This document shows, piece after piece, positions 17,139-64,000 of a stretch of 64,000 nt of DNA; within the stretch, counting starts at the first letter, position 1, and each line of letters starts with the position of its first letter. The translations under genes and the position numbers were made by a program. The notes under the pieces are model-generated. The model did no database searches and was not told the DNA's origin. It saw only the letters and a list, made by a program, of their open reading frames with translations. The DNA is from a virus. The stretch is taken from IMG/VR virus record IMGVR_UViG_3300009159_000033; one strand, written 5' to 3'.

Positions 17139-18287
17139 ATGGCTAACATTCCTAAACTGCGATTGATGCTTGCTCGGCTGGAGAAAGAAGCTGCAGTAAC
17201 CAAGGCAGAGCTACCATGGCGAGACAGAGTTGAGGTCTACACTCAAAACCCCAAGGGCAAGATCTATGGTGGCATTTGGGACAATGACAAGTCCTTTGCC
17301 CTCCCTGGCGGTGGTATTGACGAAGGTGAGGATCCTTTAGTAGCTGCTTTGAGAGAGCTTAAGGAAGAGACAGGCATTACTGCCAAGAATCCTAGGTTGC
17401 TCCCTATTGATCCCGTAGACAGTCCTTGGAGTGATGCTCATAGAGCTAAGATTAAACGCAACTTCGCTGGTTCTAGAACGCACTTTGTTTTAGCGGACGC
17501 TATGGGTAGACGAGGTAACAAGAACTTAGATGTCTGGAATGCTTCTAATAGGGGTTATTATACACCAGCCAAAGCCATTGATATCATGAACAGCAACACT
17601 AATTACATGGCTCCTACAGCTGCTGCTGCTCGGCTCAAAGCTTTGCAGCATATCCAGTCCCTAGCCATGGCAGCAGCTAAAGAAAAGTCAGCCGCTCCAA
17701 TGAACCTATACTCTTACATTCCAAGTAGTTCTATCGAGCATGTAAAAAAGCATGGACTGTTATCGGGAAACGAATTAGCAAAGCCCGAAAATAGGCACTT
17801 GTTAGACATAGCTAGACCAGATGGAGATGCAGACAGATGGCTCAAAGAAAGGGATGCAAGATTAGCTAAGTCTCCATGGACAAACTCTTATAACGGCCCC
17901 TCTGCTTTCTTTGGGGACATAGACGCTGGGAAAATCCACGATAAGCACCCAATCAAGAAGTTTGATACAACTAGGGCTGTAATTAAATTACGAGAACTAT
18001 TGAGGGACTACCCCGCTACAAAGATGGAAGGTAGCGAATTGATTCCATTCTCAGACACTACTTACGATGCCTTAGATGAAAAAGGTCAAAATGAATTTGT
18101 GAATAAACGGCATCATACGCTATCATTGGACGAGATTAAGGCATTGCTGACGAGGGGTCAAAACCCGAAAGATATGTGGAAAGACTTCAAGGACACAGAA
18201 GGTAAGTACTACGCATCAGACGTGCCACATGCACAAGTTGTTACACCTATGGGAAAGATACCTTCTAAATACATTGAGTTTAAATAA
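17139..18287 (+). CDS. Nudix hydrolase fused to a second, possibly ADP-ribosyltransferase-like, domain
   Basis: Nudix box GGGIDEGEDPLVAALRELKEETG; linker KEKSAA; then LYSY...IEHVKKHGLLS and GKIPSKYI. Confidence 0.7.
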   Translation: MANIPKLRLMLARLEKEAAVTKAELPWRDRVEVYTQNPKGKIYGGIWDNDKSFALPGGGIDEGEDPLVAALRELKEETGITAKNPRLLPIDPVDSPWSDAHRAKIKRNFAGSRTHFVLADAMGRRGNKNLDVWNASNRGYYTPAKAIDIMNSNTNYMAPTAAAARLKALQHIQSLAMAAAKEKSAAPMNLYSYIPSSSIEHVKKHGLLSGNELAKPENRHLLDIARPDGDADRWLKERDARLAKSPWTNSYNGPSAFFGDIDAGKIHDKHPIKKFDTTRAVIKLRELLRDYPATKMEGSELIPFSDTTYDALDEKGQNEFVNKRHHTLSLDEIKALLTRGQNPKDMWKDFKDTEGKYYASDVPHAQVVTPMGKIPSKYIEFK

Positions 18288-18294
18288 GTAAGTA

Positions 18295-18879
18295 ATGAAA
18301 AAGTTAGAAATTGGACCATCTAGTCACCAGCGTACCCCCGATGGTGCACCTACAGCGACTTGGGATACATTAGATAGTAGCTATAAAGCGACCTTCAACG
18401 CTAAATGGTCTGGTGATGTAGCCTCACTCCCTATCCCAGAATCTACCTACGATTGGGTGCACGCTTCGCATGTATTAGAACATTTGCCATGGTGGCAGAC
18501 TATTGGTGCGTTGACCGCTGTACATAACATCTTGAAGTTTGGTGGTCGGTTTACAGTTTGGGTGCCCGATGCTTTAAAAATCATCAAGTTAGCAATGGAA
18601 GATCCTGCGCAATTGCAAGAGCTTGAGAAGATTTGGCGGTGCGGTGGTCTTAACCCTAGCAAAGATCCTTGGATTTACATGAATGCTCGTGTATTCTGGG
18701 GAGCTAGGCCGGGCGAGGTAGGACAGGAGCAGCACTTTCATCGTGCTATGTTTGGGGAAGAATCATTGAAAAGGTTGATGGAGAAGGCTGGGTTCACTAG
18801 CGTGGCTCGAATTGAGCGGGACACCGCTGTTGATGTGGGGCATGGTTGGATGGAAATTGGGATGGAAGGGTTTAAATGA
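18295..18879 (+). CDS. Class I SAM-dependent methyltransferase (Methyltransf_11-like)
   Basis: LEIGP, YDWVHASHVLEHL, ILKFGGRF. Confidence 0.75.
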   Translation: MKKLEIGPSSHQRTPDGAPTATWDTLDSSYKATFNAKWSGDVASLPIPESTYDWVHASHVLEHLPWWQTIGALTAVHNILKFGGRFTVWVPDALKIIKLAMEDPAQLQELEKIWRCGGLNPSKDPWIYMNARVFWGARPGEVGQEQHFHRAMFGEESLKRLMEKAGFTSVARIERDTAVDVGHGWMEIGMEGFK

Positions 18880-19589
18880 GCAAGATAACCTTTGTCCTTT
18901 TGAACTATAAGCGACCCGATAACTTAATTAAACATATCATCCCAAGCTTATTAAAGAACGAGCTAACCGCTAAAGTGATCGTGTCTCACGCACTGAGAGA
19001 GACTTGCTTTGATACCTATGTACATGACGATAGGTTACTACAGTTAAAAAGCTTTGACGAGCAGAAGCGGGTAGGGATGTATTGTAGGTTCTTAGCCACG
19101 GAAAGAGCCACCACTGAGTGTATTGCCTTTCAAGACGATGACTTCTTAGTAGATAATGCTTCTATTAAGTTTTGTTATGAGCAGTGGGCAGAAGACAAGC
19201 ATTCCATTCATGGGGTTACAGGTAGGGTTATAACAGAAGACACCTACATTCCTAAAGATACACCCTCTGCCCGTGTTCCAGTGATATTGCCCCACTTTGC
19301 CATGACCTCTAGCCTTACGATAAAGAAAGTGATGGAGCTGGCACCTACAGTTGCACCCTATGTTCAAGACTGTACACCGATATGGAATGGGGAAGACATC
19401 TTTCTAAGCATTGTTGCGATGTTGCAAACAAAGAAGTTCAACCGAAGGCATGATTTGAAGCTCCAAGCATTACCATGCCCCGCTGCTATTTGTGAAATCG
19501 AAGGACACTATGACCATAGAACTTACCTAGTTACAAAATTATTTAAACTATTTCCAGAGCTCAAAGAAATATTTAAATCAAATAATTGA
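18876..19589 (+). CDS. GT-A glycosyltransferase (GT64/EXTL2-like)
   Basis: LLNYKRP, IAFQDDD, NGEDIF motifs. Confidence 0.65.
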   Translation: MSKITFVLLNYKRPDNLIKHIIPSLLKNELTAKVIVSHALRETCFDTYVHDDRLLQLKSFDEQKRVGMYCRFLATERATTECIAFQDDDFLVDNASIKFCYEQWAEDKHSIHGVTGRVITEDTYIPKDTPSARVPVILPHFAMTSSLTIKKVMELAPTVAPYVQDCTPIWNGEDIFLSIVAMLQTKKFNRRHDLKLQALPCPAAICEIEGHYDHRTYLVTKLFKLFPELKEIFKSNN

Positions 19590-19590
19590 G

Positions 19591-19676
19591 TGGCAAGGAG
19601 CAGCAAGGAATGGCAAGGAGCAGCAAAGAGGTTCATAGAAGTTCATTTTAAGATTGAACAAGATTGAACGTTCAAT
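19591..19676. repeat. Short intergenic repeat cluster
   Basis: TGGCAAGGAGCAGCAA x2 (20-nt period), GTTCAT x2, AAGATTGAAC x2, palindrome ATTGAACGTTCAAT at 19663-19676. Confidence 0.8.
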
Positions 19677-22664: not shown

Positions 22665-24437
22665 GTGCCATTTAAATCTGATGCTCAGCGTAAATTATGT
22701 TATGTCCTTAAAGGCAAAGGTCAGGCAGGTTCATGGGACTGCGCTGAATGGTCTGAAGCCACCGGCGATAAGAAGTTGCCAGAGCATGTAGAGGACCAAA
22801 CAGAGAAGAAGGCACTGGGAATCACCAACAAGCTGAAAGGCGGAGTTGGTGATAATAAAAATCCTGCGGAGTTAGACAGATCTGAATTAAATTCTGGAAT
22901 TAAAGAAGAAAAAGAACATACCAATGATACGGATGTAGCCACAGAGATTGCAGTGGATCATCTTACCGAAGAGCCTAAGTACTACTCAAAAATGAAAAAG
23001 GTTGAAAAGAGGAGTGCTATGCACATTATACAACCCTCAAAATTCGCTGAGTTGTTAGCTAAGGTGGCAGCAGCACGACCCGGCCTTTGGGCTAACATAC
23101 GAGCTAAAAAGAAGCGTGGCGAGACTGCTGCTACGCCTGGGGACGAGGACTATCCAGATTCTAAGAACTGGGACAAGGTAACGGCGATCTCTGAGAAGAA
23201 GGCTCAATGCTGGGAAGGCTATGAGCGTGTTCCGGGCACTAAGGCATTAACTTCTGGTTCTTGTCGGCCTAAAGGTAAAAAGAAAGAAGATAAAAGTGCA
23301 GCAGCTTGGGAAACCTCTGAAGGTAAGAATCCCGAAGGCGGTTTGAACGACAAGGGCAGAGCTAGCTTAAAGGCACAAGGACACGACATCAAACGACCTC
23401 AGCCTGAGGGCGGAGCTCGTAAAGATAGCTTCTGTGCACGCATGGGCGGGATGAAGGCTAAGCTCACCTCTAGCGAGACAGCTAACGATCCCGATAGCCG
23501 AATCAACAAAGCATTGCGTAAGTGGAAGTGCGGTAGTGACATGGTAGAGAAACAAGCTATCGCTGCATTATTTAAGACATTGGGTCAAGGTGCATTAAGA
23601 GCTATGTCTAAGGCTCCTATGACCACGGCTGCTGTGGGTATTGGTGGTGCGGGTGCGTATGAAGCTACTCGACCTACGAACAAGCTTATTCCTCAGATAC
23701 TTCCTAATGCAACTGGTGCAGCTCCGCCTACTCCTCCTCTTAATGAGAAAACTGGTTATGTTATTGCTGCTTTGGCCAAATTGGCAGTAGATCAAGCTGG
23801 TGGATCTTATTTAAATGCACAAAATACTATAAATGCACAACGAGTAGCACAAATAAAAGCAGATGCCGAGCGAGTGCGAATTGCTTCGGGTGCTCCTAAA
23901 CCATCTGGAAATGGAACTTATAGATACAGCGGCACTGTATTTCCCAACAGAGTTGAAAACGCACAGCACAGCTTTACTCCTCCCGCAGCCCAAGGCCAAG
24001 GAGAGTTTCTACGACAACCAGTTCAAGCTCCTAGCATGAAAGGTGACACTACACCTACTTTTAACAATCCTACTCCGCCTACCTCTAATAACACTTTTGC
24101 ACCGAGCACGGCAAAGCCTACTAATCCTCCTCCTGCTAATCGTTGGAAACCCATAGACATTAGTGGAGATCGAAGAAGAAAAGAGAAAGAGATGGGTTGG
24201 GCTCCTAATTCTATGGATCAAGGTGGGAGTCGCTATGGAGAGAATGGCCCACGTTCTGCGGAACTAGTAAAACAGTATGGTCCAACTGGTGCACCTTCTA
24301 AACCCGCTACACCTACTTCTTTAACGCAGGCTCCGGTGGCTAATGCTTCTAAAGCCCCATCTAATACTTATGCTACTTCTAGGTTCTCTTCCACACCCCC
24401 AAGTTGGGCGACACAAGGTTGGAACCCAAAACTTTAA
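22665..24437 (+). CDS. Multi-module KxA-punctuated polyprotein-like head protein
   Basis: Successive short modules (MPFKS..., EHT..IAVDHL..YY, GLWANI, CWEGY, EGKNPEGGLN..SFCARM) each ending in KxA-type sites. Confidence 0.65.
   Translation: MPFKSDAQRKLCYVLKGKGQAGSWDCAEWSEATGDKKLPEHVEDQTEKKALGITNKLKGGVGDNKNPAELDRSELNSGIKEEKEHTNDTDVATEIAVDHLTEEPKYYSKMKKVEKRSAMHIIQPSKFAELLAKVAAARPGLWANIRAKKKRGETAATPGDEDYPDSKNWDKVTAISEKKAQCWEGYERVPGTKALTSGSCRPKGKKKEDKSAAAWETSEGKNPEGGLNDKGRASLKAQGHDIKRPQPEGGARKDSFCARMGGMKAKLTSSETANDPDSRINKALRKWKCGSDMVEKQAIAALFKTLGQGALRAMSKAPMTTAAVGIGGAGAYEATRPTNKLIPQILPNATGAAPPTPPLNEKTGYVIAALAKLAVDQAGGSYLNAQNTINAQRVAQIKADAERVRIASGAPKPSGNGTYRYSGTVFPNRVENAQHSFTPPAAQGQGEFLRQPVQAPSMKGDTTPTFNNPTPPTSNNTFAPSTAKPTNPPPANRWKPIDISGDRRRKEKEMGWAPNSMDQGGSRYGENGPRSAELVKQYGPTGAPSKPATPTSLTQAPVANASKAPSNTYATSRFSSTPPSWATQGWNPKL
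22888..22903. promoter_or_regulatory. 16-bp palindromic site TAAATTCTGGAATTAA
   Basis: Exact consensus match inside CDS 22665. Confidence 0.55.
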
Positions 24438-24446: not shown

Positions 24447-25970
24447 GTGTTCAAATGCTCCGGCAGTACCTTTGATGCAATTGCACACTTAGCTGCCCAT
24501 GCTGCTAATTTAAATCTTACAAAATACGCAGACTTAAATTCTGGAATTGAACTGCAGCCTCATCAAGCAAGAGTTGTACGCAATGTACAAAATCAACTAG
24601 CTACTGAAGACAAGGTTAGACTGTTGCTGTACCAAGGGCTGGGCTCTGGCAAGACCTTAGGTGGTCTTGCTGCTGCTGAAAGCTCTAAGCTACCTTACAC
24701 CGCAATCGTACCCGCTGCTCTCCGTACTAATCTTAGGAAAGAGCAAGAGAAGTTCATCGACCAAGATACGGCGGTGCCTAGCAGCATCATGAGCCATACT
24801 GGGTTAGGTAGAGGGCTTCCCATAGCAAATCCTGACTCGTTGCTCATTGACGAAACACACCGGTTTAGGAACGCACAATCTTCTCAAACGCAGAACTTGT
24901 TAGATGCAGCTAGAAAAGCAAAGCAAGTAGTGATGTTGAGTGGTACACCTATTGTGAACTCTCCTGCGGATTTTGCAGTACCTTATAGCGTGCTTACCGG
25001 CAAGGATACGACCCCAGAAGAGTTTAGTGCTAGGTATGTGGACAACGACCCACAACCTTCGCTGTATCGCCGTTTCTTTAATTTAAAGGCACCCGATCCC
25101 GGCTTAAAGAATGTAGAGGAGCTGAAGAGCAACTTAAAAGGTAAGGTAGATTACTTTGCACCAGCTAAGCCTCAAGCAGAGATTAATAGAGAAGATGTGA
25201 TCACGGAGATGACTAGGGATCAAACAGACCTAAACTCACAGATGTATGGTAAGCTCCCCGCCTTGCTCAAATGGAAGCTACAACTAAACTACCCACTGAG
25301 TGACGCAGAGTCTAAGAAGATGGTTAGCTTTCTGACTGGACCAAGACAGCTAGGGTTGTCTACGAGCACATTCACGCAGGATAAGTCTGACCCCATGGCT
25401 GCGTTTAACAGCTCACCTAAGCTAACAGAAGCATTTAAAAGGGTTAACGAAATGATCCAAAAGGATCCTAAAGGTAAAGCTCTCATCTTTTCTAACTTCA
25501 TTGAGTCGGGCTTGAACCCTTATCAAGCTGCGTTGGACAAAGCGGGCATCCCTGCAGCATCCTTCACAGGAGCACTCTCTGACAAACAGCGAAAGAAGCT
25601 GGTAGACGACTATAACTCAGATAAGCTGAAGGTGGCATTGCTGGGGCCATCTGGTACTGAGGGGCTCTCGTTCAAAGGTACAAAGCTTATGCAGCTATTG
25701 GATCCACATTGGAATAATGTTAGGTCTGAGCAGAGTGAAGGGAGAGGATTAAGGTATGACAGTCATGCCCATCTTCCGCTTGCCGATAGGAAAGTAAAGA
25801 TAGAGCGGTACATAGCTAGGACAGCCCCAAGCCGATTAAAATCATTACTCCGCTACATTGGGGTTAAAGTTAATCCCTTATCTGCTACTGATGATTACCT
25901 CATTGCAGCGGGTAATCGTAAGCAGCAGCTAAATGACAAGTTCTTAGACTTACTCAAAGGATTAGATTAG
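24447..25970 (+). CDS. Superfamily 2 DExH helicase/ATPase (SNF2-related, NPH-I/VETF-like)
   Basis: LQPHQ, LLYQGLGSGKT, LLIDETH, LSGTP, LIFSNF, GTEGL, QSEGRGLRYDSH. Confidence 0.85.
   Translation: MFKCSGSTFDAIAHLAAHAANLNLTKYADLNSGIELQPHQARVVRNVQNQLATEDKVRLLLYQGLGSGKTLGGLAAAESSKLPYTAIVPAALRTNLRKEQEKFIDQDTAVPSSIMSHTGLGRGLPIANPDSLLIDETHRFRNAQSSQTQNLLDAARKAKQVVMLSGTPIVNSPADFAVPYSVLTGKDTTPEEFSARYVDNDPQPSLYRRFFNLKAPDPGLKNVEELKSNLKGKVDYFAPAKPQAEINREDVITEMTRDQTDLNSQMYGKLPALLKWKLQLNYPLSDAESKKMVSFLTGPRQLGLSTSTFTQDKSDPMAAFNSSPKLTEAFKRVNEMIQKDPKGKALIFSNFIESGLNPYQAALDKAGIPAASFTGALSDKQRKKLVDDYNSDKLKVALLGPSGTEGLSFKGTKLMQLLDPHWNNVRSEQSEGRGLRYDSHAHLPLADRKVKIERYIARTAPSRLKSLLRYIGVKVNPLSATDDYLIAAGNRKQQLNDKFLDLLKGLD
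24535..24550. promoter_or_regulatory. 16-bp palindromic site TAAATTCTGGAATTGA
   Basis: Exact consensus match inside the helicase CDS. Confidence 0.55.
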
Positions 25971-33183: not shown

Positions 33184-34185
33184 ATGCGAAGAAGTTTAGC
33201 AAGTCAGTATCGAGTTAAAACCGCACATCACTTACTTAACATCGTTGCGTTGAAGCGAGAAATGGACACCTACAGTGTAGACGGTCTGTTGAAAGCTGCT
33301 TCTACTGGGCATAGCAAAGAAGCTTGTTTAAGATACGCTGGATTACACGCTGCTTTGTTGATTGAAAAGCGAGCGGTAGACAGCTATAATTTTGGACCAG
33401 ATACAGCTGCATTTAAAAACAATAGTCCAAAACCAGCTGCACCTACAGTAACACCGCCTACAGCAGCACCTGCAGCAAAAATACCAAATCGTGGCTTTGC
33501 TGGCTTATTTGGAGGCGGAAGCGCAGCTCCTAAACCCGCAGCTTCGAGTTCTAGTGGTTCTGGTTACACCGGTGGTAACTATATGATTAACACTCAAGCT
33601 ACAAAGCCTTCCACCGCACCTAGCAACCTTGATGCAAGTATGCTGGATGGACTTCTTGCCCACAGTAAAGCTAATGATGTGCAAGCCCCTGGTTTATCAG
33701 TTCTATCCCCAGCAAGCCCACCACCTGCAATGAATAATGCAGGCACAGCCTCAAGGAGACAAGCTCCGGCACCACTTACCGCAAATGTGATTCCTAAACC
33801 GCAAGGCACGGCTAATGCAACCAGTGGTTTAGGTTATGATCCTACTGGCTCCGGAAGTGCTGGAAGAGTTTCGGGTACTAAGCCTGCTCCAACCCCTCCC
33901 GAAAATGATATGAGCAGCAAAAAGTTTAAACCTACTGCAGACACCGTAGACCCTGTTGAAGAAGCTTACTCCAAGCAATTAAACGAAAGTGCTGCTGCTG
34001 CTGCAAAAACTGACAAAATGCCAAGCCTTTCAGAAAGTTCTGGGGCAGAAGGCGGTGTACCTGCAGCACAAGAAGCAATAGCTGCACAATCTCAAGGTAA
34101 TGGGCGTAGTGGTCGCTTCTTTAATGGACAAGGTATTGGGCAAGGTCTCCAAAACCGTGGTCGCCTATTTGGGCGAGGCCGTTAA
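33184..34185 (+). CDS. KxA-leader protein with a low-complexity Pro/Ala/Ser/Gly body
   Basis: N-terminal helical module ending IEKRA, then disordered region. Confidence 0.6.
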   Translation: MRRSLASQYRVKTAHHLLNIVALKREMDTYSVDGLLKAASTGHSKEACLRYAGLHAALLIEKRAVDSYNFGPDTAAFKNNSPKPAAPTVTPPTAAPAAKIPNRGFAGLFGGGSAAPKPAASSSSGSGYTGGNYMINTQATKPSTAPSNLDASMLDGLLAHSKANDVQAPGLSVLSPASPPPAMNNAGTASRRQAPAPLTANVIPKPQGTANATSGLGYDPTGSGSAGRVSGTKPAPTPPENDMSSKKFKPTADTVDPVEEAYSKQLNESAAAAAKTDKMPSLSESSGAEGGVPAAQEAIAAQSQGNGRSGRFFNGQGIGQGLQNRGRLFGRGR

Positions 34186-34260: not shown

Positions 34261-35493
34261 ATGGCAAATTATACGAATGAAAAGCTTGCTTGGGAGGCTT
34301 TAACCAACATGTTTGGGGGTTCAAAGCCTACTCCAAATCCAGCTCTTGCACGTATCAATTTACCAGCTCCTGCTCAACCTGATTACTCTGGCGGTTGGTT
34401 AGGTGGTATGCTTGGTATGTCTGGGCCTACTCCTAATACCTTAACTAAAGGTATGCAGGCAGATAGGGCTGCTGGAACAGATACTGCTTCTCGTCATGAA
34501 GCTATGCGCAAAGCTATGCCCGCAAATCTACCAGCTCCACCTCCTCCACCACCTGATCACTCAGGCGGTTGGTTAGGTAATATGCTTGGTATGTCTGGGC
34601 CTACCCCTAATACTACAACTGCAGGTTTTCGTGCAGATCAAGCTGCGGGGACAGATACAGCATCAAGACAAAACGCACAGATGCAAGCTGGAACAAATGT
34701 TGGGGGTGGTACCCCTATAGGCGTAGACGAAGTGGCGGGAACTAATGTTGGCGGTGGAATCCCTGAAGGAGTTAAACAATCCATGGACAAGCAAGCTATA
34801 GCTCTTAGAGCAAATCGTTTACATATTTTGAACACAGAGATTGCTCGATACAATCCTGCCAATTTGATTAAACAAGCTGCAGACTATCCCACTACAAGCA
34901 ATAAGCAAGCATGTGCTTATTACCTTGGGTTGAAGAAGCAAGCAGCGGTAGAGAAGAAAGCTTTTCTTAAAGCATTAGGTAAAATATTAGGTGGTGCTTA
35001 TGGTGTGGCCAAAGGTGCAGTTACTGGGGCAGCTCCTCATGTAGGTGACGCAATGCGTGGAGCAGCAACAGGAGTTAGAAATTACACTGTAGCTAATCCT
35101 CTTAAAGCCGTAGCAGGTGGTGGTGCCCTTGGGCTTACCGGCGAACACTATGTCTTACCATTCTTAGGTGATGTAGCTAACACCGTCAAAGATAGATACA
35201 ACGAGTCCGCAAAAGGATTTGATGAATTCATGCATAGGCTTGGTAGAGGCTACAAAGCAACTACTGCTGACCCGACTTCTGACTTTTCAAGCGATGGTAT
35301 AAACAAAGCCAAAAAAGTAATAGAAAGCGTTACTCCTAAAGCAATTACTTCTGGCATCATACCTTCCAAACCTTCTAGACTGCTTGAAGTAGAAGAAGGC
35401 TCTATTCCTGATGATTTTAAGTCTAGATCTTTGCCTAGGGATAACCCCCAGTGGAGAAGTGGAACACGTGGTCGAGACTACCCCAGATACTAG
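34261..35493 (+). CDS. KxA-punctuated protein with an internal duplication
   Basis: Start at ATG 34261 (SD gaggga); NEKLA, DKQA, IKQA, KKQAAVEKKA. Confidence 0.6.
   Translation: MANYTNEKLAWEALTNMFGGSKPTPNPALARINLPAPAQPDYSGGWLGGMLGMSGPTPNTLTKGMQADRAAGTDTASRHEAMRKAMPANLPAPPPPPPDHSGGWLGNMLGMSGPTPNTTTAGFRADQAAGTDTASRQNAQMQAGTNVGGGTPIGVDEVAGTNVGGGIPEGVKQSMDKQAIALRANRLHILNTEIARYNPANLIKQAADYPTTSNKQACAYYLGLKKQAAVEKKAFLKALGKILGGAYGVAKGAVTGAAPHVGDAMRGAATGVRNYTVANPLKAVAGGGALGLTGEHYVLPFLGDVANTVKDRYNESAKGFDEFMHRLGRGYKATTADPTSDFSSDGINKAKKVIESVTPKAITSGIIPSKPSRLLEVEEGSIPDDFKSRSLPRDNPQWRSGTRGRDYPRY
34381..34668 (+). repeat. In-frame duplication, 174-nt period (D.SGGWLG.MLGMSGPTPNT...AAGTDTASR)
   Basis: Two diverged copies visible in DNA and protein. 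Confidence 0.85.
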
Positions 35494-43661: not shown

Positions 43662-44096
43662 ATGGAAGCTTTTCTTCAACGTTTACCTGCAATATTTAAC
43701 AATAAAACGGCAGCTAACAGCAATGGCTGGTACATTGCGGAATCAAATATAAAAGGTAAAGGCATATTTGCTGACAAGGATTACAAGGAAGGGGAGATCA
43801 TTGGCAGTGGGGGTACAGCGGGCGGAGAAGATGAATTCGGTTCTAAAATCTGGAATTTAACAGAACTGGCTCGTTATTGTAACCATCAATGGAAATCGAA
43901 TGTTGACATAAAGAAAGATAATGATCAAATTGATTTAGTGGCAAAACGAGAAATTAGCAAGGATCAAGAAATTGTAGCGGATTACGCACAAGTTTCTCGA
44001 GAGCTTGGAGCTCGTTCACGCATGATGTGGAATGGCAAAGATGTACCATCTACCGACTTTTCTGACTATGTGGAAAAAAACAACGAAGATGAATAA
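43662..44096 (+). CDS. SET-domain protein lysine methyltransferase
   Basis: KGKGIFA, ARYCNH, EIVADY motifs; NKTAA leader. Confidence 0.8.
   Translation: MEAFLQRLPAIFNNKTAANSNGWYIAESNIKGKGIFADKDYKEGEIIGSGGTAGGEDEFGSKIWNLTELARYCNHQWKSNVDIKKDNDQIDLVAKREISKDQEIVADYAQVSRELGARSRMMWNGKDVPSTDFSDYVEKNNEDE
43844..43859. promoter_or_regulatory. 16-bp palindromic site TAAAATCTGGAATTTA
   Basis: Exact consensus match inside the SET gene. Confidence 0.55.
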
Positions 44097-49951: not shown

Positions 49952-50332
49952 ATGCAAGTACATGAAGCATTTAAACTTGGGTTTTTATCTAGGTGTGTCG
50001 AAGAGGGAATGAATCCCGAGCAGACACATGGTTTGTCTAAAATGGCTGCAAGCTTATTTAGCCCAATGGGTGAAGTGCGTAACGCTGTTGGAACTCTTGG
50101 GGACATGGCCCCGTATTTAGCGGCAGGATTGGCAATTCCGCCTGCCCTTGGCGGTCTTGCTGCCTACTTTGCTAACCAAGCTACAGACACAGAAAGCAGT
50201 CAAGGCGTAGATAATATTAAGCGGCAGGAATTGCAAGAAACTTATGAAAGAATGGCTGGGCAGCTGCAAAGGCAGAAAGAACGACAAGATTATAAAGCAA
50301 AGCGTAAGAGTACTGGGCGTATTTTCCTGTAA
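49952..50332 (+). CDS. KxA-leader protein with a hydrophobic segment and coiled coil
   Basis: Leader FKLGFLSRCVEEGMN...SKMA; LAAGLAIPPALGGLAAYF. Confidence 0.55.
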   Translation: MQVHEAFKLGFLSRCVEEGMNPEQTHGLSKMAASLFSPMGEVRNAVGTLGDMAPYLAAGLAIPPALGGLAAYFANQATDTESSQGVDNIKRQELQETYERMAGQLQRQKERQDYKAKRKSTGRIFL

Positions 50333-50726: not shown

Positions 50727-51509
50727 ATGGACATGAATAAGACAAGCGCAAAAAAGTTATTGAAACAAATTAAAGTTGAAAAATCTGCAGCAACACCAAT
50801 TGGTGCGCTCGGTGATGATCTTAGAACGCAAGTTAATCAACAAATGCAATCTGATGCAATTAAAACTATTCTTAAGGCAGTAGCATTTGCAGCAGGAACT
50901 GGAGCTGCAGTTAGAGGAGTTACCGGACTTTTTGAAGGGCCAAGAAACCCTAAAAAAGGCCCGCGCGTAATTGATATGCCGGTAGCATATCCAAAAGAAA
51001 AGAATGCAATAGATTCAAATTCTAGAGCGACTTCTCCTTATGGTTTAGACTACTTTTTACCTAGCCTTGTGGTAGGTGCTCCACTCGCTGCTTATGGTGG
51101 CTGGAAAGGTGTAGATCTTTTGCTAAACAAAGTAAAGGAACGAGAAAGCAAAGCAAAGCTTGAATCTTCAAAAAAGAAATACGAGGAAGCTTTACTTGGA
51201 GCATACAAGCAAGGAACTGATGATTGCTTAGACCAGGCATTTTCTGGATATAGTCAAAAAGCGGCATTAGATCCTATTGGTGCCATTTCTGACAAATTTA
51301 ATTCTACTTTTCCAAATGCTTCTGGGCTTGGTAAAGGACTAGCTTTAACTTGGTTGTTGTCTAGTGTTCCTGCTGGTTACTACTTGGTCAACAAAGCTAT
51401 GAAAAAGAATAGTAGGCGCGCCATATTGGAAGAGGCTGTCGAAGAAAGAGCACGTCGGCAAGCATTGACACAACCTCCTGAAATTTACGCTACTCCGCAT
51501 GCCGTATAA
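50727..51509 (+). CDS. KxA-punctuated protein with three hydrophobic segments
   Basis: VEKSAA and SQKAA sites; hydrophobic helices each followed by basic coiled segments. Confidence 0.55.
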   Translation: MDMNKTSAKKLLKQIKVEKSAATPIGALGDDLRTQVNQQMQSDAIKTILKAVAFAAGTGAAVRGVTGLFEGPRNPKKGPRVIDMPVAYPKEKNAIDSNSRATSPYGLDYFLPSLVVGAPLAAYGGWKGVDLLLNKVKERESKAKLESSKKKYEEALLGAYKQGTDDCLDQAFSGYSQKAALDPIGAISDKFNSTFPNASGLGKGLALTWLLSSVPAGYYLVNKAMKKNSRRAILEEAVEERARRQALTQPPEIYATPHAV

Positions 51510-55996: not shown

Positions 55997-56068
55997 GCAA
56001 TATATCTCTATCCTAGATTTTGATTAGAACTTAGAATCATAAGATGAGATCACACAAGGAGTATGTTT

Positions 56069-56791
56069 ATGGCAGTTAATTTGGAATTGTTAAAGATGGC
56101 CCGACAACATGTAGGAAAACGCCATCTATCTAAATATGCATTTGTTGCAGCAGGTGACCCAGCTATGGGTGCTCCTATGCCTTCTGGCGGTGCTCCTCCT
56201 ATGGATCCTTCCATGGGTGGCGGTGCTCCACCTCCTGACCCTTCAATGGGTGGTGCTCCTCCTATGGATCCTTCTATGGGCGGTGGTGCTCCTCCTATGG
56301 ATCCTTCTATGGGTGGTGGTGCTCCACCTCCTCCCCCTATGGACCCAATGGCAGCAATTATGCCAATGGTTCAACAGGCAGTACAACAAGCAATGTCGGC
56401 TAATGGTGGTGGGCAACCGCAAGGTGCGGGCCCTGGGCTTAAACCTAAAATTGACATAAATGTTGAAATTGTACAAATTAAAAAGATGCTTGCTAAAATT
56501 ATTGATGCTCTTGGTATCCATGTGCCTGTGTCTGATATGGTGGTAACACCCGAAGATTTAAACCAGATTGCACAAGGTGGACCAGGCTTGGCAGCAGCTA
56601 CTCCCGATGGTAAGTCGGGTGGCGGTCTTGGGCAGATTGCCCCTATTTCTCCGATCAAGGCTGCTGAAGCGTGGGAAAGTGGCACAGCTTTTAGTTTATC
56701 AGCTGACTACTATCCTCAGCAGCCTTCTAATAAAAATGGCAGTGTAGCTGCAATGGCTACTGCTCTTTTAATGCGTAATAATAACAAGTAA
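56069..56791 (+). CDS. Pro/Gly/Met-rich repeat protein between the RNAP genes
   Basis: KMA/KYA leader, (GGAPPMDPSMG)n, then a short helical region. Confidence 0.6.
   Translation: MAVNLELLKMARQHVGKRHLSKYAFVAAGDPAMGAPMPSGGAPPMDPSMGGGAPPPDPSMGGAPPMDPSMGGGAPPMDPSMGGGAPPPPPMDPMAAIMPMVQQAVQQAMSANGGGQPQGAGPGLKPKIDINVEIVQIKKMLAKIIDALGIHVPVSDMVVTPEDLNQIAQGGPGLAAATPDGKSGGGLGQIAPISPIKAAEAWESGTAFSLSADYYPQQPSNKNGSVAAMATALLMRNNNK
56186..56349 (+). repeat. In-frame tandem repeat, 30-33-nt unit, about 4.5 copies
   Basis: GGTGCTCCTCCTATGGATCCTTCTATGGG units. Confidence 0.9.
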
Positions 56792-57644: not shown

Positions 57645-60600
57645 ATGTTGAATACGACCGTTGGACAACTGTTAATTAATGATGTCCTTCCGGAAGAGTT
57701 GAGAGACTCCCATCGTGTGCTAGACAAAAAAGGGTTGCAATCTTTACTACAGCAAGTGGCGCGGCAGCACCCAGAGAATTACCGAGATATATCTTTTAAG
57801 CTAAGTAATCTTGGTCAAAGTATAGCACAAGAGCAGGGTGGTATGTCGTTTGGGCTTCGTCACATGCAAGTAAGTAAATCTGCAATAGCTTCCCGCCAGA
57901 AGGTTAGAGCTTCTCTTACTAATATCCTAGCTGACGATTCTTTGACAGACCAAGAGCGAAACGAGCAGATTATTCGTGCAGTTGGCAAGGAAAGTCCAGA
58001 ACAGCAAAAACAAATACTTGCAGAAGCGTTAAAAGACAAGAACCCTCTCGGTATGCAGGTTATGTCGGGTACCCGTGGTAAGTCTATGAATCTAACTAGT
58101 TTGTTAGGTTCAGACATGCTGTATTCGGACCAGCGTGACGATGTAATTCCAATTCCTGTGCTGCGAAGTTACAGCGAGGGGCTGTCTCCTGCCGAGTACT
58201 GGGCTGGAACCTACGGAGCACGCAAAGGCATTATGGCAACTAAGTTTGCCACACAAGATGCTGGATTCTTTAACAAACAACTTAATCAAACTAGTCATAG
58301 ATTGGTAGTCACCGGAGAAGATGCCGAAGAGGCAGACGACGCACCTATCCGTGGATTAGTGGTGGATACTGATGATCCAGACAATGAAGGGGCATTGCTA
58401 GCTCGTAATGTTGGTCCTTACGCTAGAAATACTCCACTTACTCCAAAAATACTGAATCATTTAAAACGGCTTGGTACACCTAAAATCTTAGTGAGATCTG
58501 CCCTAGTGGGCGGGTCTCCCGATGGCGGTGTTTATTCTAGAGATGTAGGTATTAGAGAAACTGGAAAGCTGCCTGGGCTTGGCGAGCAAGTTGGGTTACA
58601 GGCTGCCCACGCTTTAAGTGAACCGATTAGCCAAGGTCAGTTATCTGCAAAGCATTCGGGGGGCGTGGCCGGACAAGAAAAAGCTGTTAGCGGTTTTCAG
58701 TATTTAAACCAATTAGTACAAGTTCCTAAGAAAATGCAAGGAGGGGCAGCCCACTCGTTAATGGATGGAGTGGTGCAGCGTATTGAAGAAGCCCCTGCGG
58801 GCGGGAGCTATGTCACCATTGGGGATAAACAACATTATGTAGGGGCTGGGTTTGAGCTTAAAGTAAAAAAAGGAGATGAGGTAGAGGCTGGTGATGTAAT
58901 TAGTTCAGGAATTCCTAACCCAGCAACTATTACCGAACATAAAGGAATTGGAGAGGGTAGGCGGTATTTTGTTAATGAGTTCCGCAAGGCGATGGGTGAC
59001 AGCGGAATGTTTGGGCACAGACGTAATATTGAGGTGTTAGCCCGAGGTCTTATCAACCATGTAAGGCTGACAGAAGAAACAGATGACCATGTGCCTGACG
59101 ATGTTGTTCCTTACTCTACGCTTGAACACACATACAAGCCACGAGAAGACCACCAGCGGTTAACTCCTAAGCGTGCATTAGGACAGTATCTAGAGCGCCC
59201 TGTACTGCACTACACTATTGGGACCAAGATTCGACCTTCTATGCTTAAGAATTTTGAAGATTTTGAAATTAATGAAATTCCAGTGCATAAGAACCCACCG
59301 CCATTTGAACCAAACATGGTTCGTGGGTTGTATCAAATGCAACATGATCCCGATTGGATGACACAAATGTATGGGTCTGGTCTAAAGAAAAGCTTCTTAG
59401 ACTCTGTGACTCATGGGGCTATCAGCGAAGAACGAGGTACAAGCTTTGTTCCAAGCTTAGCAATGGGTCTTGATTTTGGAGAAGGTAAAAACCATGCGGT
59501 AATAAAACCTCAGCCTAGTTATGAGCTACCGGCATTACCTCCACTTCCTCCCCCTATTCCTTCTACTCCTGCTGCGGCAAAGCCTACAGCTCCTAGCAGT
59601 GCTCCTTTTTTTGGCGGGCGTTTTACCCCTGGGCAAACTAAGCTAGGATTAGATAGCACACCTTCTGTGTCTAAGCCACCTTCTGTCTCTAAGCCACCTG
59701 CTGTAACCAGTATGTCACCAGTTTCTAAGCCTCTTAATACAAACATTATGCCTTCTCCTACTCCAGCCCCCAAAACTGCACCGACTACCCCAAGTTCAAA
59801 CCAATTTAGTAACTTGATGCAAAACGATACTTTTGCACAGCAAACTGGTCAGATGTTAAACGGAGCAGATCCTACAAGTGCACTTATGATGCTAGGAGGC
59901 ATGGCAGGGGGTAGTAATAACATGTCTCAGTTATTTAACTCTGGGCCTTCGCAGCGATTAGCCACAAGCGGTAGTGGCGGTGGAATGTTTGGTAATTTGT
60001 TTAATATGTTTGGGAATAACAATCAAAATGGGCAATCAATTATGCCCAGTGGAGATTACAACTCAGCTACAAATCAAGGCGGGATGTTGAGTAGTAACAC
60101 ATCTGCGGAATCTGCACCCGCATCTTCAGCAGAAGCAGTTCCTGCAGAGGCTACATCAAAAGCTGGTCCAGATATATTTACAGCTGTAGATCATGCACCG
60201 GCGGCCTATACCGCTATAAAAAATACAATCGTACCGCCTAAGGCATTACCTACTCCCCCTGCGCCTACTGCACTAGTGCCTAAAGCACCGCTACCTACAG
60301 CTCCAGCACCTATTACCCCTACTCCACCGATACCCAAAGCACCAATACCCAAAGCACCAATGCCAGCTGCACCAATACCAGCTGCACCCGGAGGTTTACT
60401 TAGTAAAGTAATGCCAGCAGTTTCCACGACTTACAAAACATTGGCTAAAGCAGCCCCTGGTATTGGAATAGCTTTAGAAACTGGGAGTGTCGGTTACGAT
60501 GTTTACAATAAGGGTTGGGATAACACAACTAACGACGCAGCACAAAATATAAGAAACATTGCTTCAGGTAAAGATGGGTTGCACACATTGTGGCAAGCTC

Positions 60601-61364
60601 CTGTTCAAATTTTAAACCCAGTGGCTAACGCACAGCTAATAGCAGGCGGTACAACTCAGACTGCACAGATGATTGGGGAGCAAGCTGGGATAGGTGCTGA
60701 AGCTATTCGAGATAAAGTAACTGGAACTGATGCTATTTCTCGTGCATCGGTTGTGGACAAATCAAAAGTTAACGCAATGGAAGTAGCAAAGCAAAAAGAT
60801 TTAGAAGCACAAAAAGCTAAGCTTCAGCAAGAGTCGCAAAATACAAATATCATGGCTCCCTCCATGATAGAACAAAATAAACAAGAGCAAGCTGGCATCG
60901 ATGCACAAATAGGAGACGCTAAAACTAGACAAGAAAATACGGCAGACGAAACAGCTAAGTGGAGATTAGGTCAGCAGAATTGGTTTGGGAGTGGCGGACA
61001 CAAATTCCGAGATGCCATGCAAAATTCGGTTGCAGCTACGGACACAGAGCTAGCAGATTTAAAAGCTAAAGGTGAATTAGATGCAGTAGGTCAAGCACGG
61101 CAGGAGCAGTTATTAAATAGACAGGCGCAGCGTAAGGCAATGCTGGGTACTTATGACCGAGAAAGCGGTTCCTCGGGTAAGGGATTATTCAGCAAGGATA
61201 TACGCAATCGGGTTAGCGGTCTTAAAGAAAACATTGTGGCAGTTACTGCACAGCTTCGAGATACTTCTCTTCCTCCTGAACAAAGGGCAAAGCTAGAAGC
61301 CCAATTGAAAACTAATAACGAGGACCTTGCTGAGTACCGAGGATGGGCAGAAAGTTCTAAATAA
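57645..61364 (+). CDS. rpoC: RNA polymerase beta' C-terminal half plus a ~620-aa low-complexity/coiled-coil extension
   Basis: TTVGQ, SGTRG, EGLSP, bridge helix GARKG...AGF, trigger loop GEQVGLQAAHALSEP...KH.GG, HRRNIEVL. Confidence 0.92.
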   Translation: MLNTTVGQLLINDVLPEELRDSHRVLDKKGLQSLLQQVARQHPENYRDISFKLSNLGQSIAQEQGGMSFGLRHMQVSKSAIASRQKVRASLTNILADDSLTDQERNEQIIRAVGKESPEQQKQILAEALKDKNPLGMQVMSGTRGKSMNLTSLLGSDMLYSDQRDDVIPIPVLRSYSEGLSPAEYWAGTYGARKGIMATKFATQDAGFFNKQLNQTSHRLVVTGEDAEEADDAPIRGLVVDTDDPDNEGALLARNVGPYARNTPLTPKILNHLKRLGTPKILVRSALVGGSPDGGVYSRDVGIRETGKLPGLGEQVGLQAAHALSEPISQGQLSAKHSGGVAGQEKAVSGFQYLNQLVQVPKKMQGGAAHSLMDGVVQRIEEAPAGGSYVTIGDKQHYVGAGFELKVKKGDEVEAGDVISSGIPNPATITEHKGIGEGRRYFVNEFRKAMGDSGMFGHRRNIEVLARGLINHVRLTEETDDHVPDDVVPYSTLEHTYKPREDHQRLTPKRALGQYLERPVLHYTIGTKIRPSMLKNFEDFEINEIPVHKNPPPFEPNMVRGLYQMQHDPDWMTQMYGSGLKKSFLDSVTHGAISEERGTSFVPSLAMGLDFGEGKNHAVIKPQPSYELPALPPLPPPIPSTPAAAKPTAPSSAPFFGGRFTPGQTKLGLDSTPSVSKPPSVSKPPAVTSMSPVSKPLNTNIMPSPTPAPKTAPTTPSSNQFSNLMQNDTFAQQTGQMLNGADPTSALMMLGGMAGGSNNMSQLFNSGPSQRLATSGSGGGMFGNLFNMFGNNNQNGQSIMPSGDYNSATNQGGMLSSNTSAESAPASSAEAVPAEATSKAGPDIFTAVDHAPAAYTAIKNTIVPPKALPTPPAPTALVPKAPLPTAPAPITPTPPIPKAPIPKAPMPAAPIPAAPGGLLSKVMPAVSTTYKTLAKAAPGIGIALETGSVGYDVYNKGWDNTTNDAAQNIRNIASGKDGLHTLWQAPVQILNPVANAQLIAGGTTQTAQMIGEQAGIGAEAIRDKVTGTDAISRASVVDKSKVNAMEVAKQKDLEAQKAKLQQESQNTNIMAPSMIEQNKQEQAGIDAQIGDAKTRQENTADETAKWRLGQQNWFGSGGHKFRDAMQNSVAATDTELADLKAKGELDAVGQARQEQLLNRQAQRKAMLGTYDRESGSSGKGLFSKDIRNRVSGLKENIVAVTAQLRDTSLPPEQRAKLEAQLKTNNEDLAEYRGWAESSK

Positions 61365-61413: not shown

Positions 61414-61451
61414 GGTCTAATAATTTCAAGTTTTAAACTTAGGTGAATATT

Positions 61452-61661
61452 ATGTGGAATAAACCGCTGCTTGGTGGGCTTGACATAAAATATGCTGCAG
61501 CATACTTGTTGCCTCCGACTACCATGAAGAAAAAGAAAAAGAAAACGCCACTAGAGGAAGAAGAAACGGATGTGGAAAAGGTGGCAGCTGCCTTGGGTGA
61601 TGCTATTGTAAATGCCCGCCTTTCTTTACTTAGACAGCAGATGCGCTCTAATAATCGGTAA
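61452..61661 (+). CDS. Small KxA-motif protein
   Basis: IKYAAA and VEKVAAA; SD aggtg. Confidence 0.5.
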   Translation: MWNKPLLGGLDIKYAAAYLLPPTTMKKKKKKTPLEEEETDVEKVAAALGDAIVNARLSLLRQQMRSNNR

Positions 61662-61686
61662 GTAATACAATCGAGGAATGTTGCTC

Positions 61687-64000
61687 ATGGAAATGCCTAG
61701 ACAAAATAATTTATTGAAGAATGCTAGTATCGGCGGTAAGGGAGGAGAAACTGAATTTGAACAAGCTTTCTCTAGCTTGGCTTATGCTTATTTAAAAGAT
61801 AAGGCACCCCGCCTCCTTGATTACATGTTAGGCTTCCAGCTAATTGATCGAAATGAAGATAACACTAAAGCTATTGGTGTCTTTGGTTTTCAAGTCGGCA
61901 AGCAATGGTTGTACGCTCCTGTATTTTTCTTAAATGGTGATTTAAAAGGACACGAGTTACTCTACATAAAAAATAATGATTCGTTTGTTCCTATGAAGGA
62001 AAACTGGATCAACTATCTTATGAGTCGAAAACCTCATATTTTAGGGGAGTCTTCCGTAGGTAAATTACAAGAGTTAGGAGGAATCGCTCCTGATATCAAT
62101 TCTTTATCTATTTCTCCCCAAGGCCACAAGCACGCAAGTGATTCCCAGTGGTTACAGCCCGTTCTACCTATGCTAGCGGCCTTCAAAGTAAAACTTGCGG
62201 GCTCTTTGTACCGTGGTGCCGGCAGCCGTAAGCTGGATCAAAAGGCAGTTGTTCGAGTGCCATTCACAGCAGCATTAACCAAGACAGCTTCAAATCTGGA
62301 TTTTAACCAAGTGCTGCCTAAAAGCTTGGCATTACTTGAAGCAGCTTACGACTTAGCAGAACGCTATCCCACCATTAAAAAAGCTACTAGTGACTTCTAT
62401 GGTGTGGATTGTTTTTCACGCTGGGCTAAAGAACTTCGAAGTAACACAATCAAGCAGGCTAGCAGCATTCTTCCTACGCCTACTACTGTCACACTTGTGC
62501 CCAACACCTTGCTAAGCTCACTATCCCAGCCACTTCCTATTACCGACCACATTAAGGAAGGTAAGTTAGAAGTCTATATGTCAGCTTCTGTGGTAACTAA
62601 TAAAGATGAGCTAAACACCCTAGATCGAGAAAGGTTATTACAAGGCAAAGTAGTCATCAAAGATCGTAGAGAAGATACAGAAGTAAGTAAGCTTTACACC
62701 ACTGAAAATGATATTAGCCTCACCAACCCCTCTGAAACTGAATTGTATTCTGTTTTAGAGAGCTCTGGTGAATTTAGTAAAATGTTGGTGGTCTTGAATG
62801 GTATCAGCAGTCGTGGAGCAGAGTCCATGACCACAGTTGTACGGATAGATAAAAAGGATGGGGCTAACAAAAGCTGGTTAAATGCCGACAGCACGTCAGT
62901 TTTTGCTACACAAGTTTCTGACAAAGACGAGTGGAAAGATTGGTTTGATGGCTTATCCTCTGATACAGACTTGGACGAGGATGCAGAATATATTGCTATA
63001 AACTACAGTCGTTCAGCTACTGCTCCTTTCCGTGTAACTACGGACATGGGTGATGGTGAGTACAAAGTAGATTTTCGCACGAATAAAGATTATTCAGCTT
63101 CACGTAGCGAGCTGATGCCTAAGATACAAGATCGGTATGCTCCTTCTAGGCGGGGCATGGCAGCAGGTGCTAATCTAATAAGTTCTTTCAATAGTAATAG
63201 TAATTATGGGGCTACTCTAATCATTGGCAAAGAAGATAAGAGCGGCCTTAGACTTAGACCTGTCTCCGGACAACTTCGTGTGCCAGCTTCTTTCAAGTTC
63301 ATCAAATTGTCGGATGGTTCTTCTTCCAGCATCTTTGGCGGGTGTGGCTGTTCACCTTTTGACGATGAATCAAATCCTATTAAGTTAGGTGGCTTAGCTG
63401 ACATCAAACGCTTATTAGTTGAAAAGACAGCTAGGCTCAAGATATTTAATAACGGAACTGATGTGTACCTAGACTCTGTAATCGGTGCCGTTCAATTAAG
63501 CAAAAAAGCAGCACTATGCCGCTTGGTAGACACACATGGACTTCGTGAAAAAGTTGCCGTGGATATGCTGCAACAAGCAGAGAAAAAAGGTCATGCAATT
63601 TATCGTGTGCTTTATGCTGCTGGTTATGGGACCGAGAAACAAGCTGAGCCTAATACCAGCGTGTTAGCTGGAGGCCCATCCTTCCCCCTTGATACGGATA
63701 CTTCTGGGGATCGTGGCAGTGAAACCTATGGCCCAAGCACCTCTGCCCTAACTCGATATTCTACCGAGAAAAACTCGCCTATCCCTTCAATGAGCGGTAA
63801 GAACACAAATAGGTCTAAGTGGGACAACTGGCAGAACTTTGAAGCTAAAGATTTTCAACAAAATCTGCAATCTGCTCAAACTGCTGGCAAAGATGGGCAG
63901 AAAGAAGTATTTGATGTTTCAATGATGGCAGGTATGTTAAAAACAGTAAGACAAGATTCACTAGTAGATCGCCACTTGGGCGACTTAATGGCAGCCTTGG
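61687..64000 (+). CDS. Large KxA-punctuated protein, 3' end outside the window (not in the ORF track)
   Basis: Open frame from ATG 61687 (MEMPRQNNLLKNASIGG...FEQAFSSLAYAYLKDKAP) to the window end, at least 771 codons by my translation. Confidence 0.8.
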   Translation, partial: MEMPRQNNLLKNASIGGKGGETEFEQAFSSLAYAYLKDKAPRLLDYMLGFQLIDRNEDNTKAIGVFGFQVGKQWLYAPVFFLNGDLKGHELLYIKNNDSFVPMKENWINYLMSRKPHILGESSVGKLQELGGIAPDINSLSISPQGHKHASDSQWLQPVLPMLAAFKVKLAGSLYRGAGSRKLDQKAVVRVPFTAALTKTASNLDFNQVLPKSLALLEAAYDLAERYPTIKKATSDFYGVDCFSRWAKELRSNTIKQASSILPTPTTVTLVPNTLLSSLSQPLPITDHIKEGKLEVYMSASVVTNKDELNTLDRERLLQGKVVIKDRREDTEVSKLYTTENDISLTNPSETELYSVLESSGEFSKMLVVLNGISSRGAESMTTVVRIDKKDGANKSWLNADSTSVFATQVSDKDEWKDWFDGLSSDTDLDEDAEYIAINYSRSATAPFRVTTDMGDGEYKVDFRTNKDYSASRSELMPKIQDRYAPSRRGMAAGANLISSFNSNSNYGATLIIGKEDKSGLRLRPVSGQLRVPASFKFIKLSDGSSSSIFGGCGCSPFDDESNPIKLGGLADIKRLLVEKTARLKIFNNGTDVYLDSVIGAVQLSKKAALCRLVDTHGLREKVAVDMLQQAEKKGHAIYRVLYAAGYGTEKQAEPNTSVLAGGPSFPLDTDTSGDRGSETYGPSTSALTRYSTEKNSPIPSMSGKNTNRSKWDNWQNFEAKDFQQNLQSAQTAGKDGQKEVFDVSMMAGMLKTVRQDSLVDRHLGDLMAAL
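62290..62305. promoter_or_regulatory. 16-bp palindromic site (1 mismatch) TCAAATCTGGATTTTA
   Basis: Inside CDS 61687. Confidence 0.45.

Follow-up and report, generated by a model that had tools for sequence, protein, structure and literature searches.

To our knowledge, the specificity of the prohead protease is known for a handful of phages only, and all characterised enzymes of the T4 fold cut after Glu. Cutting after Glu also applies to the giant-phage prohead proteases known from publications (PMC5694885, PMC10052503), and C-terminal autocleavage is on record for the enzymes of phiKZ and SPN3US (PMC5694885). The motif of T4 gp21, (L/I)-x-E, is repeated in scaffold and propeptide regions, at the N-terminus of the major capsid protein (MCP) and, for autoprocessing, in the protease itself (PMC5694885, PMC10052503). 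In herpesviruses pUL26 has the order protease, linker and scaffold and cuts after Ala at the R and M sites (PMC4498786). Here we describe a Lys-x-Ala motif (K-x-A) in the proteins of an uncultured phage, encoded on and directly beyond a stretch of 64,000 nucleotides (the window) from the IMG/VR virus record IMGVR_UViG_3300009159_000033. We consider it likely that K-x-A, in full (L/F)-(E/V)-K-x-A followed by A, S or G, is the recognition motif of the clade's own prohead protease, a protein of 492 amino acids (aa). Lys would then stand at P3 and Ala at P1, the residue before the scissile bond. A literature search for a K-x-A or Lys-X-Ala prohead rule, with incomplete coverage of the literature, found no paper.

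The window is the minus strand of positions 50152-114151 on an IMG/VR viral contig of 172,719 bp, which is estimated to be 84% complete, and it encodes 69 open reading frames (ORFs) with 20,474 residues. The head-morphogenesis module begins at the 3' end of the window (ORFs 61443 and 61678) and extends about 10 kb past it; positions past the window end are given as window-equivalent coordinates. With the MCP as a probe, 75 related viral contigs were found, and probes from the fast-evolving proteins 27093, 50727 and 66338 yielded only one or two related loci.

Enrichment and conservation of K-x-A

A preliminary description of this DNA had listed 18 EKxA sites as a putative protease cleavage or packaging signal. 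Every one of them was found in its ORF, together with three that had been overlooked (EKDA in 8603, EKWA in 42830 and EKNA in 50727). The 21 EKxA sites of the window compare with 6.5 expected by composition (3.2x), and the 20 sites within 17139-64000 with 5.0. The enrichment persists after composition correction but is smaller than first claimed, at 3-4x and not about 9x: the earlier expectation of about 2 sites in about 4300 residues was too low because its denominator was limited to ORFs already having EKxA, which is a selection bias. A count of 21 was reached in 0/2000 shuffles within proteins and in 0/300 shuffles within local windows of 10-40 residues. EKxA ranks second among the 8000 motifs of the same shape (XY.Z, the point standing for any residue) and is the maximum among 66 arrangements of E, K and A. 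Since the codon usage of the sites is the same as that of the genome and the underlying DNA pattern is rare off-frame, the signal lies at the protein level, and an origin at the DNA level was ruled out on these grounds. EKxA is also in excess in the remaining 108 kb outside the window (25 sites against 12.7 expected, p=0.0014), mostly owing to seven consecutive genes just downstream of the window.

The excess is concentrated in the head module, from the last 2.5 kb of the window onwards, with its main part downstream of the window. Eight head-module proteins contain 65 K-x-A against 22.6 expected (p=3e-13), making it the top gapped pair by ten orders of magnitude; the second pair is F.K, corresponding to P5 and P3. 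Pairs of the Glu-P1 type (L.E, I.E, A.E, S.E and G.E) are all at expectation in these eight proteins. The identical pair analysis of T4 gp21-24 returned I.E and L.E as the top two pairs, which is the known gp21 rule, and the T4 scaffold has no K-x-A excess. By recovering the gp21 rule, this control validates the pair-enrichment approach. Mapped along the genome, the ratio of observed to expected K-x-A is about 1 everywhere except at 60-80 kb, where it rises to 2.2-2.3x and where the strong form of the motif occurs 12 times against 1.1 expected. In the head-module neighbourhoods of the 75 related loci EKxA is the most enriched XY.Z motif, with 882 occurrences against 142 expected; the enrichment per locus is 4-16x in most, including loci at about 30% MCP identity. 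K.AA, K.AS, F.K.A and [V/I/T/Q]K.A are enriched in these loci as well, and the substituted or rearranged motifs ER.A, DK.A, AK.E and EK.V/T show no enrichment there.

Positional conservation points to the same two residues. In more than 50 relatives, K and A stay almost unchanged while the flanks around them drift: 42 distinct sites are retained in at least 50% of orthologues, with the K and A columns conserved at 0.9-1.0 and the flanks at 0.15-0.6. For joint retention in divergent orthologues K-x-A is the second of 115 pair types and by far the most numerous. The de-duplicated logo of the conserved sites reads (L/F)-(E/V)-K-x-A-(A/S), with L (2.2x) and F (4.2x) enriched at P5 and with A (34%) and S (14%) at P1'. 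Only K-x-A is conserved as a core, and Glu is not part of it; Glu ranks first among the residues that precede Lys (3.2x) and is present in only about 23% of the conserved sites. EKxA thus appears to be the subset of K-x-A sites with Glu at P4.

Remote from the head module, about 44 kb upstream of the window and on the opposite strand, lies an ORF of 392 aa (G000:C1:157512-158690, locus L129) for which there was no family match. Its 15 K-x-A, where 3.9 are expected, include four EKxA and four of the strong form, and the protein may be a further substrate of the protease or part of the cargo.

The candidate protease, the major capsid protein and cultured relatives

The motif-richest protein is the 492-aa protein encoded just downstream of the window (window-equivalent 68892-70370; L002:13631-15109, minus strand); 12 of its 15 K-x-A sites are conserved. 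Homologues are gp222 of Salmonella phage Arash (5e-24) and gp19 of Bacillus phage G (8e-8). Phage G gp19 matches phrog_18299, 'head maturation protease' (3e-19), and is annotated as a head maturation protease (PMC12484599). The 492-aa protein is linked to this PHROG family only transitively, through gp222 of Arash and gp19 of phage G; when the protein and its alignment were searched against Pfam, PDB sequences and PHROG, there was no direct match.

An AlphaFold (AF2) model from 28 orthologues has a confident N-domain at about residues 16-234 (predicted local distance difference test, pLDDT, mostly 75-94); the linker behind it (233-286) is disordered, and the C-domain of about 200 aa is helical. 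A structural search with the N-domain placed T4 gp21 (5JBL_A) first, with a Z-score of 8.4 and a root-mean-square deviation of 3.8 over 143/165 aa, and the protease of varicella-zoster virus (1VZV) second with Z 6.0. The protease of human cytomegalovirus (8J3S) reached Z 4.0, the next unrelated match Z 5.1, and Foldseek on the protease model was weak (prob 0.44-0.60). In the model, the N-domain has the protease fold of T4 gp21 and herpes assemblin. The gene order is 68892 (protease), 70412 (K-x-A-rich, 399 aa), 71648, 72145 and 72745 (MCP), the same as in Arash gp222 to gp226, and the protease gene lies upstream of the scaffold-like gene and the MCP, as expected of a prohead protease and as in T4.

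The candidate catalytic residues are H103 and S166 (the latter within VSMAC), both invariant in a comparison that reaches as far as Arash gp222 and phage G gp19. A herpes-like triad H62/S166/H218 was considered and dropped, H62 and H218 not being conserved in phage G or Arash. Residues 24-30 (VSSRGLI) agree at 6/7 positions with T4 gp21 139-145 (VSSRGLG), which we take to surround the catalytic Ser of gp21. This likeness is probably coincidence, since the structural alignment is not collinear with it, its two Ser vary within the family and the hhalign probability is <1%. A K-x-A at K250-x-A252 (here K250-A-A252, followed by A), in the disordered linker behind the protease domain, is invariant as far as phage G. 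Four Cys residues (C169, C176, C179 and C190), likewise invariant as far as phage G, form a cluster within residues 166-195 that immediately follows the candidate catalytic Ser; they may belong to a zinc-binding insertion, something unusual in a prohead protease.

The candidate thus shares features with two described types of enzyme. Like T4 gp21 it has its motif repeated in scaffold-like proteins, at the MCP N-terminus and in the protease itself. It differs from T4 gp21, phiKZ gp175 and SPN3US gp245 ((S/A/G)-x-E) in that the invariant residues are Lys at the putative P3 and Ala at the putative P1, in place of Glu at P1, and from the T4-type protease in the lack of a Pfam S77 match, in the fused helical C-domain and in the Cys cluster by the candidate Ser. 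Herpes assemblin (pUL26/VP24; (V/L/I/Y)-x-A then S/T) would resemble it in the Ala at P1 with a small P1' residue (Ser/Ala), if the cut follows Ala, and resembles it in the order protease, linker, scaffold, here with a predicted self-release site that follows the protease domain closely, and in the fold match. In contrast to assemblin, the putative P3 is Lys and not hydrophobic, the hydrophobic preference being at P5, the sites number dozens across many proteins and not two or three, the host is bacterial, and no second His of a Ser-His-His triad can be recognised (H218 is unconserved in Arash and phage G).

The MCP is an ORF of 315 aa at window-equivalent 72745-73692, which matches the annotated Arash MCP (E=1e-28) and Bacillus phage G gp27. 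In 71/71 relatives a single K-x-A is found at residue 24-36, directly preceding the conserved core, and in the alignment K32 and A34 are the first invariant columns. Four MCPs at 29-32% identity with unrelated leaders still have the N-terminal K-x-A. The upstream EKLA of this MCP, which is EKLS in most relatives, probably does not count as a site.

The head modules of Arash and phage G are related to this one by a homologous MCP, a homologous protease (gp222 and gp19) and a gp218-like protein, although MCP identity to this phage is only 24-29%. For Arash (OQ632216) K-x-A is the top pair in gp218-226 (46 against 21 expected, p=2e-6), and it is at background in the Arash RNA polymerase (RNAP), helicase and tail proteins. 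The Arash MCP has GLVKEA followed by G, at 27-29, and the head proteins gp220-225, verified by mass spectrometry (MS), have many sites, e.g. GIVKVAS, TIEKTAS, QMTKQAS and ELVKEAS. In the virion MS the Arash MCP is covered at 86.6%, which is compatible with a lost leader and no proof of it (PMC10585845); the supplement consists of a feature table only, with no peptides. In phage G (locus L081: gp14, gp19, gp21, gp27) there are 8 K-x-A in gp19 against 2.4 expected and 7 in gp21 against 2.8, and the portal leader has QMAKQAA at residue 18. A cleavage motif is described in neither the Arash nor the phage G paper (PMC10585845, PMC12484599).

Sites within the window and borders of mosaic proteins

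The genes of the contig and of the window lie almost all on a single strand. Those of the window include a NrdJ-type ribonucleotide reductase (45585), a UDP-glucose dehydrogenase (20619), a helicase, an exonuclease, a NUDIX protein and a SET-domain protein, as well as two RNAP beta/beta'-like giants of 1488 and 1239 aa (window 51530-55996 and 57645-61364) directly upstream of the head module. By this gene content the source is an uncultured jumbo phage with its own multisubunit RNAP. A comparison at the DNA level found no close cultured relative. As the preliminary description had it, EKxA is not present in NrdJ or the UDP-glucose dehydrogenase.

Conservation of the sites in the window was judged from 4-27 orthologues per protein; the fractions give the retention of K and A and the identity of the flanks. 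The conserved sites, with the head-module protein that holds five of them, are as follows.

61678..64000, plus strand: first 2.3 kb of ORF 61678, an 843-aa head-module protein running to window-equivalent 64209
61717..61725, plus strand: leader site K14-N-A16 of ORF 61678 (LLKNA, then S), K and A kept in 8/8 orthologues, flank identity 0.51
62128..62136, plus strand: K151-H-A153 of ORF 61678, kept 1.00, flank 0.46
62281..62289, plus strand: K202-T-A204 of ORF 61678, kept 1.00, flank 0.46
63421..63432, plus strand: E582-K-T-A585 of ORF 61678, listed earlier, kept 1.00, flank 0.50
63547..63558, plus strand: E624-K-V-A627 of ORF 61678, listed earlier, kept 0.88, flank 0.52
61443..61661, plus strand: ORF of 72 aa with K16-Y-A18 and E45-K-V-A48 (the latter listed earlier), both kept in 4/4 orthologues, a small sample
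24522..24530, plus strand: K26-Y-A28 of the helicase (ORF 24447-25970), at the border of leader and helicase domain, kept in 92% of 12 orthologues (median 43% identity), flank 0.31
43704..43712, plus strand: leader site K15-T-A17 of the SET-domain protein (ORF 43662-44096), kept in 4/4 orthologues, flank 0.49
50039..50047, plus strand: leader site K30-M-A32 of ORF 49952-50332 (GLSKMA, then A), kept 0.86 in 14 orthologues, flank 0.29
56132..56140, plus strand: leader site K24-Y-A26 of ORF 56063-56791, kept 0.91 in 11 orthologues, flank 0.54
56657-56665, plus strand: K199-A-A201 of ORF 56063-56791, kept 0.91 in 11 orthologues, flank 0.41
50778..50789, plus strand: E18-K-S-A21 of ORF 50727, listed earlier, moderately conserved (kept 0.64, flank 0.28)

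ORF 61678, a homologue of the MS-verified Arash structural protein gp218 (phmmer E=3e-8), has 11 K-x-A against 4.5 expected. Conserved K-x-A at residues 14-39 are found in the helicase, the SET protein, 49952, 56063, 61443, 61678, 70412 and the protease. Short N-terminal leaders that appear to end in the motif are thus present on non-shell proteins, as in the T4 internal proteins IPI-III and Alt, whose capsid targeting sequences are short N-terminal leaders ending in the gp21 motif. The leaders ending in KxA that had been reported for the helicase, the SET protein, 49952 and 56063 are conserved and proved firmer than the headline EKxA list. The sites of that list exist and several are conserved; roughly half are unconserved or beyond orthologue comparison. 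Among the unconserved are 17139 K16, 27093 K223, 34249 K12, 50727 K92 (kept at only 0.18) and 47956 K38, as well as 42830 K26. The total of K-x-A in ORFs 17139, 22665 and 27093 is at expectation, and for ORFs 22016, 17139 and 27093 the comparison was limited to one close relative. In the RNAP beta-like protein K92-A-A94 is kept in 96% of 27 orthologues; we did not count it as a motif site, the segment being conserved on both sides.

The conserved domain of the helicase begins directly after K-x-A in every relative, and the part before it ranges from 10 to 495 aa. The junction in the relatives is always K-x-A followed by (D/E)L. Distant relatives (L096-L105) have the helicase domain inside frames of 650-2984 aa, fused to long unrelated N-terminal parts.

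Three further ORFs have borders of modules at K-x-A sites.

22665..24437, plus strand: ORF 22665, a 590-aa mosaic protein with DUF5661 and DUF6321 modules (Pfam domains), with borders at K-x-A sites
33364..33375, plus strand: E61-K-R-A64 of ORF 33184, where the high-scoring segment pair (HSP) with the closest relative ends at residue 66-68; one relative only
34789..34797, plus strand: K181-Q-A183 of ORF 34249, directly before the only module common with the closest relative (HSP starts 184-187)

The module borders of ORF 22665 coincide with EKKA 47-50, KFA 126-128, EKKA 177-180, KSA 210-212 and EKQA 295-298. Its segments match separate ORFs in relatives, and the HSP boundaries cluster at K-x-A sites: in the relatives, half of the HSP or module starts are no more than 6 aa away from a K-x-A cut (10% at random), and other starts have K-x-G/S variants. 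ORFs 33184 and 34249 have homologues in the closest relative only, and the breakpoints with this relative in 22665, 33184 and 34249 fall 2-3 residues from K-x-A (small n). In a breakpoint test against the closest relative, 5/14 were within 4 aa compared with 13% at random, a result that includes some locus-edge artefacts and is merely suggestive.

The DUF5661 and DUF6321 micro-modules recur in different proteins of relatives. They are also present at the C-terminus of a 939-aa protein by the terminase in the T4-like Synechococcus phage ACG-2014f (L157, NC_047714 gp121). The motif at the junction is swapped between the lineages: in front of the DUF6321 module stands KSA in this phage and LPE (then G) in the T4-like cyanophage, where an earlier copy has LME (then G). 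LPE and LME are Glu-type sites of the kind expected for the T4-like lineage.

Interpretation of the motif

The preliminary description had proposed a signal for the prohead protease, under a rule of Lys-P3 and Ala-P1. For the motif in its redefined form, K-x-A, this is the best-supported of the explanations considered, because K-x-A ranks first in the head module and is conserved in position there, the MCP site is universal, the sites are densest in and around a protease of the gp21/assemblin fold, and the junction motif is swapped for L-x-E in a T4-like cyanophage. We propose that head-internal proteins, scaffold-like proteins, protease and MCP would assemble into a prohead, in which the protease would cut after the Ala of K-x-A. 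The cut would remove a leader of about 34 residues from the MCP, the protease would free itself at the invariant K250-x-A252 behind its catalytic domain, and the scaffold-like proteins would be chopped at many sites. Short N-terminal leaders or joints would be trimmed from packaged cargo, such as the helicase, the SET protein, small proteins and mosaic proteins such as ORF 22665.

Several points weigh against this proposal. We infer cleavage, for this phage and for every relative, as we do the scissile bond after Ala and the packaging of the leader-bearing proteins. The Arash virion MS sampled 116 proteins and reported coverage only, with protease and cleavage unmentioned (PMC10585845). Scans of the genome for Pfam S77/S78 gave no match, and hhalign of the protease alignment against T4 gp21 gave a 7-residue non-significant match only. 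The conserved sites K82, K95, K139 and K156 lie within the confidently folded part of the protease domain, where, judging by the model, they would be cut only during self-destruction or be structural. The helicase site and RNAP K92 might belong to the fold because conserved sequence follows them. The MCP structure model (pLDDT 59) is too poor to locate K-x-A in the fold, and phage G gp27 has zero K-x-A, for which reason MCP trimming may have been lost in the phage G lineage. Finally, the related loci are phylogenetically non-independent.

An unlikely alternative is that K-x-A is an uncleaved docking or packaging signal, which binds for example the inner capsid shell, the portal or the scaffold. 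Such a signal would suit the N-terminal leaders of putative cargo and the repetition of the motif in scaffold-like proteins, as well as the sites in folded regions, where cutting seems unlikely; the T4 capsid targeting sequence both targets and is cleaved, so the roles can coincide. However, three residues make a small core for a binding epitope, the motif reaches its highest density in the protease domain and right behind it, with one site invariant out to phage G, and the small P1 and P1' residues fit cleavage of the assemblin type. The equivalent junction in the T4-like phage is a bona fide cleavage motif, and the T4 control ties such enrichment to protease specificity.

Slightly less probable still is that the protease recognises the motif and the scissile bond lies elsewhere (after Lys, or before Lys and after Glu in the manner of T4), or that a host protease cuts. 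In favour of this, characterised T4-type phage proteases cut after Glu (PMC5694885), and no residue precedes Lys more often than Glu. Against it, Glu is missing from about 77% of the conserved sites while K and A are invariant, and Glu-P1 pairs are at expectation. The conserved domains (MCP core, helicase and DUF6321 module) begin directly after Ala, and the enrichment of A and S at P1' also speaks against another bond.

It had also been suggested that the Lys in K-x-A is modified, for example methylated by the SET enzyme of the phage. The SET domain of ORF 43662 is genuine (SET PF00856, E=2e-8) and the invariant residue is a Lys, but we regard this explanation as very improbable because the motif is kept in SET-free relatives: the SET domain is present here and in the closest relative, but two 100%-complete relatives, G012 and G019, and the complete genome of Arash bear the motif and lack the domain. 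Moreover, the Ala two residues on is equally invariant and the motif tracks the protease gene, not SET.

That the pattern is a functionless by-product of E/K/A-rich helical segments and of post hoc motif picking is just as improbable: E, K and A are helix formers, there is mild enrichment (1.1-1.3x) of each of the pairs EK, K.A and E..A, the motif was picked after looking with a biased expectation and about half of the listed sites are unconserved, but local-window shuffles never reach the observed count, the enrichment replicates outside the window and is 6x in the 75 relatives with permuted motifs flat, column conservation exceeds that of the flanks, and the T4 scaffold lacks a K-x-A excess. 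For the head module, chance or helical composition is largely refuted; it is likeliest for isolated sites such as 17139 K16, 42830 K26 and 50727 K92.

Beyond recognition by the prohead protease, there may be a 'load into head, then cut' code across a large clade of uncultured jumbo phages together with Arash and phage G, an extension which we put forward tentatively and consider somewhat doubtful. Helicase, SET methyltransferase, possibly RNAP and shuffled small modules would stand behind K-x-A joints and be packaged, released by an assemblin-like Ala-P1 protease and injected. The same cargo modules would have L-x-E joints in T4-like phages, so the joint would co-evolve with the protease while the cargo moves between lineages. 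In the virion MS of Arash, the helicase, a sigma factor and RNAP subunits rank with the most abundant proteins (PMC10585845), a hint that RNAP may be packaged.

As a cultured member with virion data from liquid chromatography with tandem MS (LC-MS/MS), Salmonella phage Arash makes the motif directly testable. If true, a rule of Lys at P3 and Ala at P1 would add a new specificity, similar to that of herpesvirus assemblin, and it would strengthen the link between phages and herpesviruses at the substrate level. The motif would then predict mature N-termini as well as head-internal, possibly injected proteins from sequence, across uncultured jumbo phages.

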